A stretch of DNA of 44,390 nt. Source: Escherichia phage 590B. The position numbers were made by a program, and so were the translations under genes. The stretch's first letter is position 1; every line of letters starts with the position of its first letter. Positions 11,388-40,391 of the stretch are shown piece by piece. The notes beneath the pieces were generated by a model that saw only the letters and a program-made list of their open reading frames with translations, was not told where the DNA came from and did no database searches. Location: the sequence record MW722821.1. One strand, written 5' to 3'.

Positions 11388-11858
11388 CTACTCATGGTTT
11401 TCATGGAAACCGTATTTACTCTCAGCGGCTTTACGCGCGGCAACCGCTACATCAAAATCATCGTAAAGCCCTAAATGCACTTGTTTGTAGTTAACTTTTA
11501 TAAACGCGCGCCACTTACCCGCGGCTTTGTGGAAACTTACACCTGTAGCCCCGGATTTATTTATCTTTCTCATAGTTTTATTTTTACTGTTCCCTGTATT
11601 GTCGGTGGCGCGTAGATTTTCTATTCTATTGTCTAGCCTGTTATGGTTTATGTGGTCTATTTGAATTTTCCTGTCTAAGTCACATTTATTATAAAGACAC
11701 CATGCTATGCGGTGGACATACACTGTTTTGCCACCCATACCGCAGCACAGATAGCCTCTTACACCAACCGTACCAACCTCAGCACCAGTAGATATCCTGG
11801 TAACCTGCCCAGTATCAGGGCAGTATTTAAATTGTTTTGAAACATCAAGGTACTTCAT
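11388..11858 (-). CDS. HNH homing endonuclease with AP2-like DNA-binding domain
   Basis: HNH core YVHRIAWCLY...IDHINHNRLDNRIENL followed by an AP2-like segment GVSFHKAAGKWRAFIKV...LGLYDDFDVAVAARKAA. Confidence 0.7.
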   Translation of the reverse strand: MKYLDVSKQFKYCPDTGQVTRISTGAEVGTVGVRGYLCCGMGGKTVYVHRIAWCLYNKCDLDRKIQIDHINHNRLDNRIENLRATDNTGNSKNKTMRKINKSGATGVSFHKAAGKWRAFIKVNYKQVHLGLYDDFDVAVAARKAAESKYGFHENHE

Positions 11859-37479: not shown

Positions 37480-37853
37480 GTAACAAAAACGAAGTATTCG
37501 AGTACCTGATTGACCAACTACGGCAGCAGGTAAATAAGAAAGATGTCACATCTTTCAATGTGTCTGTGCGGATATCCGACCTTGATGAGGTCAAGCAGGT
37601 AATTCACAACCTACAGCAGCATATCGCCGGTAAGGATGACGAAATACGGGCGCTGAAAGACAGTTTACGGCAGCAGGTAAATAACAGCCAGATGCACCTG
37701 GCGGCATCAGAAACGTTTTACTCGATGGAGGCGTGCCCGTCAGCGGCACGCGCCGCTGAGAACGCGCACTTTCTGTTTCAGGGTGACAAGCCCAACGATT
37801 CAGAGGTACGCGCTATCTGCTCACCTAAGCGACTTGGAAAACAGGAGAAATAA
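37476..37853 (+). CDS. hypothetical coiled-coil protein with internal repeat
   Basis: 125 aa; in-frame 18-bp exact direct repeat (37520-37537 and 37667-37684) encoding LRQQVN. Confidence 0.5.
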   Translation: MSNKNEVFEYLIDQLRQQVNKKDVTSFNVSVRISDLDEVKQVIHNLQQHIAGKDDEIRALKDSLRQQVNNSQMHLAASETFYSMEACPSAARAAENAHFLFQGDKPNDSEVRAICSPKRLGKQEK

Positions 37854-37854
37854 C

Positions 37855-38058
37855 ATGGTACAGAGATATTCTAAGTATGGGTCCGACAACCATTTCATTG
37901 ACCGCCACGGGAAGTGGGTTAAGTTTGAGGACTACCAGAATCTTGACCTAAAGCTGTTGGAAGTTGAAGCCGAGTTACAGAAATACAAGGACCAGTTCCT
38001 GGATTACGTCGAGTGCGCGAACTGTGGGTCAGTTACACATGTGGGAGGGGTGGAGTAA
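37855..38058 (+). CDS. hypothetical protein, MVQRY paralog 1
   Basis: 67 aa; N-terminus MVQRY and C-terminus ELQKYKDQ...YVECANCGSVTHVGGVE shared with next gene. Confidence 0.5.
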   Translation: MVQRYSKYGSDNHFIDRHGKWVKFEDYQNLDLKLLEVEAELQKYKDQFLDYVECANCGSVTHVGGVE

Positions 38059-38062
38059 TGGT
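37969..38062 (+). repeat. 94-bp direct repeat, copy 1 (3' end of MVQRY paralog 1)
   Basis: About 88% identical to 38238-38331, including the overlapping stop/start GGAGTAATGG vs GGAGTGATGG. Confidence 0.7.
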
Positions 38063-38327
38063 ACAGAGATATGAGGTAAAAGCGTGGGGCCTGCCAGAGC
38101 CTGAGATGGCTGAGTACGCATACGGCGATTATGTAGAGTACGACAGCTATAAGGAACTGGACGACTATTACCAGGAACGTCTAGCCGACGCCGACAAGGA
38201 AATAGAAGGGCTTGTGTCGAGACTGGCAGAAGTAAACGCCGAGCTACAGAAATACAAAGACCAGTACCCTGATTACGTCGAGTGCGCGAACTGCAGGTCA
38301 GTTACACATGTGGAGGGGGTGGAGTGA
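38058..38327 (+). CDS. hypothetical protein, MVQRY paralog 2
   Basis: 89 aa; same N- and C-terminal blocks as paralog 1; TAATG overlap. Confidence 0.5.
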   Translation: MVQRYEVKAWGLPEPEMAEYAYGDYVEYDSYKELDDYYQERLADADKEIEGLVSRLAEVNAELQKYKDQYPDYVECANCRSVTHVEGVE

Positions 38328-38331
38328 TGGT
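38238..38331 (+). repeat. 94-bp direct repeat, copy 2 (3' end of MVQRY paralog 2)
   Basis: See copy 1. Confidence 0.7.
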
Positions 38332-38578
38332 TATACGCTACGATTTAACAGAAGACTGCGCGAGTGGCGTGGTAGATATAACGCCTGTTCCGGACTCTCA
38401 TGAAGGGCGTTATGTAAGTTACGAAGACTACGCGAAACTCGAAGCCGAACTCAACGATATACTCGATATGTTAGTTAAGCTGGACAACGACCTGGGTTAC
38501 GGCGTAATACCGGACGAATATGCATACGATAGAGTAGGTGAGATTCTGGAGAAGTATCGCAATGAGCCTTGCAACTGA
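38327..38578 (+). CDS. hypothetical protein, MVIRY paralog 3 (diverged)
   Basis: 83 aa; starts MVIRY and shares Y-x-x-YEDY...AEL core with paralogs 1-2 but has a different C-terminus. Confidence 0.45.
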   Translation: MVIRYDLTEDCASGVVDITPVPDSHEGRYVSYEDYAKLEAELNDILDMLVKLDNDLGYGVIPDEYAYDRVGEILEKYRNEPCN

Positions 38579-38855
38579 CATCCTGAAACGAAGCGGCCTT
38601 GCGCCGCTGTCACCGAGAGCGAAGACACGTATACACAAGCGTCGCCGTAACGTGCTGTACCCAGAGATACAAGAACGGCGTAAAGCTATCCGCGCCTGTG
38701 GATTCCAGAACGGAAAGGCCGTGAATCTCGGTGAGTTTAAAACAAAGGAACGCGCAGCTATCGCGAACCGGCTATTTAATTACTGGAAATCGCTGGGGTA
38801 CGATGATATTCCGACGAAACCACAGAGACGACAATACATCTGGAGACATAAATGA
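38562..38855 (+). CDS. hypothetical basic protein
   Basis: 97-aa ORF from ATG 38562 overlapping the end of paralog 3. Confidence 0.45.
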   Translation: MSLATDILKRSGLAPLSPRAKTRIHKRRRNVLYPEIQERRKAIRACGFQNGKAVNLGEFKTKERAAIANRLFNYWKSLGYDDIPTKPQRRQYIWRHK

Positions 38856-39292
38856 CTACTATCGCGTTTGACGGAAAGACAATGGCCTGTGATACCCGTG
38901 TTGTGTGCGGGAGTAACTGTTACAACACAGACACAAAGATATACGAGAACGAATTTGTTGTTATTGGGGCGGCTGGCGATGCAGGGGTTGGTATCCTTTT
39001 AGTGGAGGACGATAGTATTTTAGTGCCTAAGCACTACGATTTTGATTTCTCTGCCTTGGTGTGGGTTAAAGACATCGAAACGTTGTGTAGGGTGGAGTTC
39101 TATAAATCTTGGGATTGTGCTCTTAGTTTGGTTATTCAGATTGCGGACAGCTTTTCCGCCGTTGGTTCAGGCGCCCCTTATGCCCTAGCGGCTATGGAAT
39201 GTGGGTATTCGGCGCAAGGTGGTGTAGCAGTTGCATCGAAGTTCGACCCTGACACCGGCGGCAAGATTATTACCAAACAACTATTAGGATAA
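38852..39292 (+). CDS. HslV-like N-terminal nucleophile (proteasome beta-type) peptidase homolog
   Basis: N-terminus MTTIAFDG matches HslV MTTIVSV (Thr nucleophile after Met removal); VIGAAGDAG and AVGSGAPYALAAM parallel HslV AGFAGGTADAF and AIGSGGPYAQAAA; 146 aa; comparison from memory of E. coli HslV. Confidence 0.55.
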   Translation: MTTIAFDGKTMACDTRVVCGSNCYNTDTKIYENEFVVIGAAGDAGVGILLVEDDSILVPKHYDFDFSALVWVKDIETLCRVEFYKSWDCALSLVIQIADSFSAVGSGAPYALAAMECGYSAQGGVAVASKFDPDTGGKIITKQLLG

Positions 39293-39351
39293 TTCCTAAC
39301 CGTGCTATCCTCCAGTTACTGCATACTTAATACGCACCTGGAGGATTCATC

Positions 39352-39660
39352 TTGGATAAATTTACTGAAACAGTGACTGGGTGGCTTCTGGCAGCCGCAC
39401 TAGCTGGTGGGGTAATCGGACTACGACAACATAAGTCCGCTATTTCCGGCCCTATCGACGGATTCTGCTTTATTGCAACTGGCTTCACTTGCGCCGTATT
39501 TGGCGCGCCTCTCGCCGCTCAATGGTTCGGTATTACCGGAGAGCGCGAGATAGCTGGCCTCGGATTCATCATCGCAATTCTCTGGATGCCCATCTATTCC
39601 CGTCTCTCCGGTATCGTCGCCGGAGAATACATCGCACGTCGAGGAGGCACAGATGAATGA
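39352..39660 (+). CDS. holin (putative)
   Basis: 102-aa protein with about three hydrophobic helices directly upstream of the endolysin; TTG start 6 nt after GGAGGA. Confidence 0.5.
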   Translation: MDKFTETVTGWLLAAALAGGVIGLRQHKSAISGPIDGFCFIATGFTCAVFGAPLAAQWFGITGEREIAGLGFIIAILWMPIYSRLSGIVAGEYIARRGGTDE

Positions 39661-39925
39661 ATTATTCTGGTTCGGCGGTATGCTGGCAATCGGAGGCACA
39701 TCGCTGTTTAATGTATATCACCCCAGCGTGGATGACGGGCTATTCGGGCGTGTGCTCTATATCCTGACTGCTATTGTCTGCGCCGCCGGATGTATTCACC
39801 TGTTGCAGGGCAGCATGTCACCAACGCTGCCTGAGACGTTAATTACATTAGTTGCGCTGCGTCAGATTCGCCAGGCGTGGCTGTCGTACGGAGGACATAA
39901 GCGTGTCTCGAAACATTTCAGATAA
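39653..39925 (+). CDS. second membrane protein of lysis cassette (holin/antiholin-like)
   Basis: 90 aa with two hydrophobic helices; GAGGAGG SD; overlaps holin stop and endolysin start. Confidence 0.45.
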   Translation: MNELFWFGGMLAIGGTSLFNVYHPSVDDGLFGRVLYILTAIVCAAGCIHLLQGSMSPTLPETLITLVALRQIRQAWLSYGGHKRVSKHFR

Positions 39926-40391
39926 TGGGTTGCATTTCACTGCCGCGTTCGAGGGGTTCCGCGGAACTGCGTATCGCGCTACGCCAAATGAGAAGTACCT
40001 GACTATTGGGTACGGTCATTATGGGCCAGACGTAACGCCAGGCAAGACCATCACCCCGGGACAAGGCCTCCTGTTACTGAATCGTGATATGGCTAAGGCC
40101 GTAGCTGCGGTTGACGCAGCGGCACACCATTCATTGACACAGGCACAGTTCGATGCAGTGTGCGACCTGGTATACAACGCAGGTGCTGGTGTGATTGCTG
40201 CTACTACCGGCACGGGTAAGGCACTGCGTTCTGGTGATATTGCAACGCTGCGGGCTAAGCTGACACTGTTCATCAACCAGAACGGCAGACCGTTACTTGG
40301 TCTGCGCCGCCGTACTGCCGGTCGTCTGGCGCTGTTCGACGGTAAACCGTGGCAAGAGGCAGAGGCTATCGGGCGCGCGGTGAAAGGTTGA
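39903..40391 (+). CDS. endolysin, lysozyme-like (GH24-type)
   Basis: FEGFRGTAYR...LTIGYGH matches the lysozyme/lambda R-type N-terminal signature; GTG start at 39903 with GGAGGA 7 nt upstream (no in-frame ATG near N-terminus). Confidence 0.65.
   Translation: MSRNISDNGLHFTAAFEGFRGTAYRATPNEKYLTIGYGHYGPDVTPGKTITPGQGLLLLNRDMAKAVAAVDAAAHHSLTQAQFDAVCDLVYNAGAGVIAATTGTGKALRSGDIATLRAKLTLFINQNGRPLLGLRRRTAGRLALFDGKPWQEAEAIGRAVKG

Follow-up and report, generated by a model that had tools for sequence, protein, structure and literature searches.

A predicted proteasome-like threonine peptidase of the PPH family encoded next to the lysis genes of Escherichia phage 590B

The window analysed here, the 44,390 nucleotides of Escherichia phage 590B (MW722821.1), is essentially the whole genome of a Kagunavirus-like siphophage of the subfamily Guernseyvirinae, and Escherichia phage GertrudWoker_Bas73 (Bas73) is near-identical to it. 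Our subject is a rightward open reading frame (ORF) of 146 codons plus stop at 38852..39292, with an ATG start and a product beginning MTTIAFDG, which lies directly upstream of two holin genes and an endolysin gene. We assign the product to PPH, a published family of proteasome homologues (Fuchs et al. 2021, PMC8665760), and consider it probable that it is an accessory, catalytically active threonine peptidase that works independently of an unfoldase and is neither part of the lysis machinery nor an orthologue of HslV. The gene and the signals at its start are as follows.

38852..39292, + strand: gene for the predicted PPH-family proteasome-like threonine peptidase, 146 aa plus stop
38842..38846, + strand: Shine-Dalgarno-like GGAGA, 5 nt before the ATG, read from the sequence
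38852..38855, + strand: ATGA start/stop overlap with the upstream 97-aa gene (38562-38855, phrog_9632), read from the sequence, with presumed coupling

The ORF is a genuine gene and not a chance reading frame, because its product matches PHROG 1040 ('peptidase HslV family') with E = 1.2e-33, the gene is present in 297 phage records by tblastn, and 3871 cluster representatives match the family profile at E <= 1e-3 in an exhaustive profile search. Nearly all of these representatives are 135-160 aa long and 124 of the top 150 start with MTT; relatives are encoded on 375 IMG/VR stretches, and the median length among 213 distant relatives (each less than 50% identical to the query) is 146 aa. The exact protein is in GenBank as QVR48619.1, 'ATP-dependent protease [Escherichia phage 590B]', and Bas73_0068, a 'peptidase HslV family protein', is 100% identical to it.

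When the family profile is aligned by hhalign with HslV of E. coli K-12 (from NC_000913.3; Prob 96%, E 3.8e-9), residues T2, D14, K29 and G42 pair with HslV Thr1, Asp17, Lys33 and Gly45, and G105-S106-G107 falls on the HslV GSGG block containing Ser124. The codons concerned, with conservation counted in the same 213 distant members, are listed here together with the segment in which the protein departs most from HslV.

38855..38857, + strand: Thr2, predicted nucleophile (Thr1) after methionine removal; T in 209/213, S in 2/213 (hhalign)
38891..38893, + strand: Asp14, equivalent of Asp17; D in 211/213 (hhalign)
38936..38938, + strand: Lys29 (Lys28 without the methionine), equivalent of Lys33; K in 207/213 (hhalign)
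38975..38977, + strand: Gly42, equivalent of the oxyanion-hole Gly45/47; G in 211/213 (hhalign)
38978..39046, + strand: residues 43-65, a short segment in place of the H1-H2 helix pair of HslV and 20S beta; 23 versus 48 residues (DSSP on the AlphaFold2 model)
39164..39172, + strand: Gly105-Ser106-Gly107 (GSG), equivalent of Ser129/Ser124; G in 213/213, S in 204/213 (T in 7), G in 213/213
39245..39256, + strand: Asp132-Thr135, matched by motif comparison to 20S beta Asp166/Ser169; D132 in 204/213, T135 as T, S or C in 213/213

The catalytic residues are thus kept in 96-100% of the distant members, and conservation of the whole apparatus indicates that selection maintains the family as an enzyme. 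The constellation is intact, and at this level the protein is predicted to be an N-terminal-threonine Ntn (N-terminal nucleophile) hydrolase of the proteasome/HslV superfamily. Several details given by a first-pass annotation of this DNA hold exactly, namely the extent, 146-aa length and MTTIAFDG start of the ORF, the lysine near position 28 (K29 of the precursor), and the GSG block AVGSGAPYALAAM (residues 103-115); the Thr, Lys and GSG positions all survive proper alignment to HslV.

Direct searches give marginal matches that are restricted to the N-terminus and the GSG motif. The Pfam Proteasome model PF00227 scores 15.1 bits, below its gathering cut-off of 22.4, although a precomputed PF00227 match is carried by a few close relatives; the NCBIfam HslV equivalog models TIGR03692 and NF003964 score 11.6 bits against a cut-off of 157.75 and 11.3 against 137; and among PDB sequences BPH (Betaproteobacteria proteasome homolog; 5ovs) comes first, followed by T. 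maritima HslV, with E values of 0.02-0.1, those from phmmer lying at 0.1-1. Such scores give no placement in HslV from sequence alone. The AlphaFold2 model, built on an alignment of 94 sequences of relatives, has a pLDDT of 94.4 and a pTM of 0.89, and Foldseek matches it to 20S beta5 subunits and HslV in the PDB with probability 1.0, which confirms, at the level of the predicted structure, an Ntn-hydrolase fold of the proteasome-beta type. The protein is no nearer to HslV than to BPH and only barely nearer to it than to 20S beta, and its matches to connectase are much weaker than those to these three. What was first annotated as an HslV-like Ntn protease is retained here as a threonine Ntn hydrolase of the wider superfamily; identity as an HslV orthologue, which we also considered, is ruled out by about 11 bits against HslV model cut-offs of 137-158.

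The protein is, as had been observed, about 30 residues shorter than bacterial HslV (146 versus 176 aa in E. coli), and the model suggests where the difference lies. The segment linking the oxyanion glycine to the following core strand counts 23 residues, versus 48 in E. coli HslV, and DSSP finds only a lone 6-residue helix (46-51) between strands 36-42 and 66-72; H3 and H4 are intact as helices 108-116 and 121-131, and the model ends at strand 139-143, without S12/H5. The C-terminal tail and 4 residues from the first hairpin account for the rest of the gap in length, some of which is made good by a 7-residue insertion. As modelled, then, most of the shortfall is due to the loss of H2 together with half of H1, which form the contact face for the alpha ring or HslU, and the contacts between rings are made by H3/H4 (PMC8665760). 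In HslV the end of H2 carries an Arg86/Arg89/Lys90 cluster that is remodelled upon HslU binding and whose mutation cripples the enzyme (PMC5777263). Loss of this face would disfavour canonical HslU docking, and thus argues against recruitment of host HslU in the canonical way, one of the roles first suggested for the protein.

A partner is likewise absent from the phage, as the first-pass annotation had stated: no HslU/ClpY-like ATPase was found in the window by Pfam scans of the large non-structural ORFs, which returned an SNF2 helicase, an AAA_25 helicase-primase, nucleases, a methylase and SSB, and the Bas73 annotation agrees. The same holds for the flanks of 65 distant viral PPH loci, where we found neither an AAA+ unfoldase nor an HslU-like gene, and where all-versus-all neighbour BLAST and Pfam searches of 207 flanking ORFs revealed no conserved partner or substrate gene beside PPH (the ORFs were called by a crude greedy longest-ORF method, so that small genes may be miscalled). 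The neighbours at these loci are heterogeneous; downstream they are often terminase small subunit, terminase large subunit or portal genes, and upstream helicases or genes of nucleotide and DNA metabolism, with lysozyme seen once in 103 downstream and once in 104 upstream positions. A PADLOC scan gave no match to a defence-system protein.

Comparison with sibling phages shows how the gene is distributed. In Bas72, a sibling Kagunavirus, the PPH ORF is cleanly absent (590B 38854-39281 versus about 1490-1500 of the Bas72 stretch), while the flanks align with about 95% identity upstream and 88% downstream; in Bas72 the stop of the upstream gene is followed within about 20 nt by the hairpin and lysis cassette that 590B also has. 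Bas72 even retains the last PPH codons (GGATAA / AGATAA). Across records, the gene is carried by about 32 of 114 from Escherichia/Kagunavirus, versus 258 of 268 from Salmonella.

Downstream, a 59-nt spacer separates the PPH gene from the lysis genes, in the arrangement that had been described, as follows.

39307..39346, + strand: intergenic 9-bp hairpin, arms 39307-39315 and 39338-39346 (RNA fold -21.7 kcal/mol, z -2.9)
39352..39660, + strand: holin 1, TTG start (phrog_2359, E 9e-30)
39653..39925, + strand: holin 2 (phrog_2508, E 2e-33)
39906..40391, + strand: endolysin, lysozyme-type (Pfam Phage_lysozyme, E 8e-27)

The Shine-Dalgarno sequence of the first holin, GGAGGA (39340-39345), sits inside the 3' arm of the hairpin, and the hairpin is conserved across Kagunavirus loci. 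Jerseyviruses have an unrelated sequence at the same site with the same architecture plus a T-run, forming a canonical intrinsic terminator, and the Shelanagig record annotates it as such. The first holin has a non-ATG start in both groups, TTG in 590B and GTG in Jerseyviruses, and the hairpin could gate holin transcription, translation or both. On its other side the PPH gene is tied by the ATGA overlap to the upstream small-gene cluster, a pattern that suggests translational coupling to that cluster. The earlier placing of the gene in one operon with the holins and endolysin is therefore unsupported, given this overlap, the hairpin or terminator before the holin and the clean absence in Bas72; a shared operon is doubtful, and the link to lysis looks positional only. 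Taken together, the ATGA overlap, the hairpin, the absence from Bas72 and the heterogeneity of the distant loci show a gene that behaves as a dispensable accessory cassette at a module boundary.

Some other features of these genomes deserve mention. Three consecutive small ORFs at 37783-38578 (+), upstream of the PPH gene, resemble tandem paralogues with partial matches to phrog_29624 (function unknown); all three probably start MV(Q/I)RY, and two end in a near-identical LQKYKDQ[FY]xDYVECANCxSVTHVxGVE. At 11388-11858 (-) there is an HNH endonuclease gene with a weak AP2-domain match, in a region that separates tail genes in Bas73; it probably encodes a homing endonuclease, and related phages have HNH genes at other sites; SETP13, for instance, carries one between its holin and endolysin genes.

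The wider family also includes some unusual members. The top viral structure match in BFVD, A0A1W6DWU9, is 263 aa long, about twice the usual length, with 58% identity over 131 columns; this related phage may have a fused gene there, or the ORF may have been mis-called. Some members have C-terminal extensions of 40-60 residues that are Lys-rich or, in one, form a Cys-rich zinc-ribbon-like tail; these may correspond to RPC, which Fuchs et al. describe as a relative of PPH. A 2655-aa repeat protein gives 12 short matches to profile residues 7-32, probably as a compositional or repeat artefact. A profile search of contigs, with alignment limited to the pattern MTTIA[WF]DG, yielded 41 loci, many from Roseomonas and other Acetobacteraceae; nearly all the genomes sampled from Roseomonas, Falsiroseomonas or other Acetobacteraceae contain PPH-like genes (33-40% identity), and the 20 contig loci that were compared have nothing in common except the PPH gene, in a context that is variable or prophage-like.

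Starting from the computed fold and residues and from the lack of a partner, we infer methionine processing, oligomerisation, independence of HslU and peptidase activity along the following lines. The PPH gene would be expressed last in the rightward small-gene cluster, translationally coupled through the ATGA overlap to the gene before it. Host methionine aminopeptidase would strip Met1 to expose the threonine nucleophile, there being no propeptide and the MTTI start being that of E. coli HslV. The chain would fold, as in the computed model and alignment, into an alpha-beta-beta-alpha sandwich with a Thr1/Asp17/Lys33/Gly47 and Ser129/Asp166 apparatus, and the retained H3/H4 ring contacts would allow self-assembly into a particle whose outer face is bare of a canonical alpha-ring or HslU cap. 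It would then act as a peptidase without ATP, like BPH, its substrate in the cytoplasm of the infected cell probably being either a peptide or one particular protein, of host or phage, that is accessible to it.

Other explanations have to be set against this one. The protein might be a surrogate for HslV, with phage-encoded rings docking host HslU and redirecting ATP-dependent degradation to substrates chosen by the phage; the group I homologs, PPH included, are thought to be HslV descendants (PMC8665760), the MTTI N-terminus is that of E. coli HslV, and the E. coli and Salmonella hosts do encode HslU. We nevertheless judge this unlikely, since the HslV equivalog models fail by a wide interval (11 bits against cut-offs of 137-158), the protein lacks H2 and half of H1 along with the Arg86/Arg89/Lys90 cluster needed for HslV activity, BPH, itself an HslV descendant, has lost HslU binding (PMC5777263), and an HslU-like gene accompanies PPH in 0 of the 65 viral loci. 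The idea of an inactive decoy, titrating HslU as the first-pass annotation had also proposed or else some other factor of the host, draws on the absence of a partner ATPase and nothing more; a decoy would not keep the equivalents of Thr1, Asp17, Lys33, Gly47, Ser129 and Asp166 near-invariant across 213 distant members, and selection of the family as an enzyme effectively excludes it.

A role in the timing of lysis, in which the peptidase would process a holin, antiholin, endolysin or lysis-controlling host factor, is suggested by the order PPH-holin-holin-endolysin, which is shared by Kagunavirus and Jerseyvirus, and by some five loci outside Guernseyvirinae in which an endolysin gene lies within four genes of PPH. 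We think it highly improbable, since the same holins and endolysin are encoded, but PPH is not, in Bas72 and in most Escherichia Kagunavirus records, a hairpin or canonical terminator stands between PPH and holin, the distant loci mostly adjoin terminase and portal or DNA-metabolism genes with lysozyme all but absent from them, and holins, as membrane proteins, would have no obvious need of processing. There is a little more to be said for a connectase-like enzyme, a sequence-specific protease or transpeptidase whose monomers or small oligomers would act on a single defined target, instead of a compartmentalised bulk peptidase: besides PPH and RPC, connectase is the sole proteasome homolog missing H1/H2 elements, and novel quaternary structures are expected among these families by Fuchs et al. 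(PMC8665760). The AlphaFold2 model lacks the helical insertion between S3 and S4 on which the specificity of connectase depends and retains the H3/H4 ring-contact helices, and BPH, HslV and 20S beta match far more strongly, so that this too seems improbable. Among rejected candidates we note a prohead protease, which does not fit a dispensable gene lying about 5 kb from the head genes of a phage that has a scaffolding protein.

Several points tell against the accessory, unfoldase-independent peptidase that we favour. The order PPH-holin-holin-endolysin is kept across two genera, in Jerseyviruses with a PPH that is 63% identical, which leaves room for a lysis-related role. BPH, the closest solved relative, binds epoxomicin but is inert on standard substrates (PMC5777263), so that for PPH the word peptidase should be read as provisional. 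Searches of the literature for functional studies of PPH or HslV-like phage proteins turned up the 2021 bioinformatic description only, and our assignment to PPH, whose reference set includes WP_042125023.1, was made from that published description. A paper on the Kagunavirus transcriptome and the paper on the BASEL collection leave the PPH gene unmentioned.

A more specific possibility, which we regard as speculative and on balance rather unlikely, is that PPH is a stand-alone, unfoldase-independent threonine enzyme of novel quaternary structure that cleaves or ligates one defined host target. If so, such an enzyme could disable a stress, proteostasis or defence factor, and its spread as a mobile accessory gene, present in Bas73 and absent from Bas72, would reflect host-specific selection. 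These two phages, one encoding the 100% identical protein and the other a natural null, are lytic on E. coli K-12 and available in the public BASEL collection, and so provide a ready test bed. The role of a capless minimal proteasome in infection would bear on self-compartmentalising proteases that act without an unfoldase, and such work would also explain why thousands of phages carry PPH.

Among known systems, HslV (ClpQ), the peptidase of bacterial HslVU, which forms a dodecamer of two hexameric rings and binds HslU, has in common with the phage protein the Ntn fold, the removal of methionine to expose threonine, the catalytic residues and the GSG(G/A)PYA motif, and E. coli HslV has an identical MTTI N-terminus. 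The phage protein is nevertheless 30 residues shorter, having lost H2, the C-terminal tail, half of H1 and 4 residues in the first hairpin, and hence the H1-H2 pair that bears the Arg86/Arg89/Lys90 pore cluster; the 'GDICIYTN' of HslV is replaced by the 'D-x-x-T-G-G' typical of 20S beta, BPH and PPH, and whereas hslV is accompanied by hslU in the hslVU operon, no such gene adjoins the phage gene. BPH (5ovs, 5ovu) likewise lacks a propeptide and a known partner unfoldase and belongs to the HslV lineage, but it is 185-200 aa long, has both H1 and H2, the latter followed by a long acidic pore loop, and forms heptameric double rings (PMC5777263); the phage protein is without H2 and the acidic pore loop, and BPH is chromosomal, not phage-borne. 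From 20S beta subunits (PF00227) the protein differs in falling below the gathering cut-off and in being without a propeptide, an alpha-ring partner, H2 and H5.

With PPH, by comparison, we found no difference. Fuchs et al. (PMC8665760) describe a family of about 140 residues in Caudovirales and prophage contexts, placed in group I alongside BPH and HslV, without a propeptide or S12/H5, and H2 is absent only in PPH and its relative RPC. The phage protein is a single domain of 146 aa encoded in a Kagunavirus-like genome, with relatives in tailed phages and prophages of Proteobacteria; it keeps Thr1/Asp17/Lys33 and the oxyanion Gly47, begins M-T without a propeptide, lacks a C-terminal S12/H5, shows in the AlphaFold2 model H1, H3 and H4 but not H2, and has BPH and HslV as its nearest relatives. 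In every feature compared, therefore, it is an ordinary member of the published PPH family, an element of a kind already known and a protein already annotated in GenBank.
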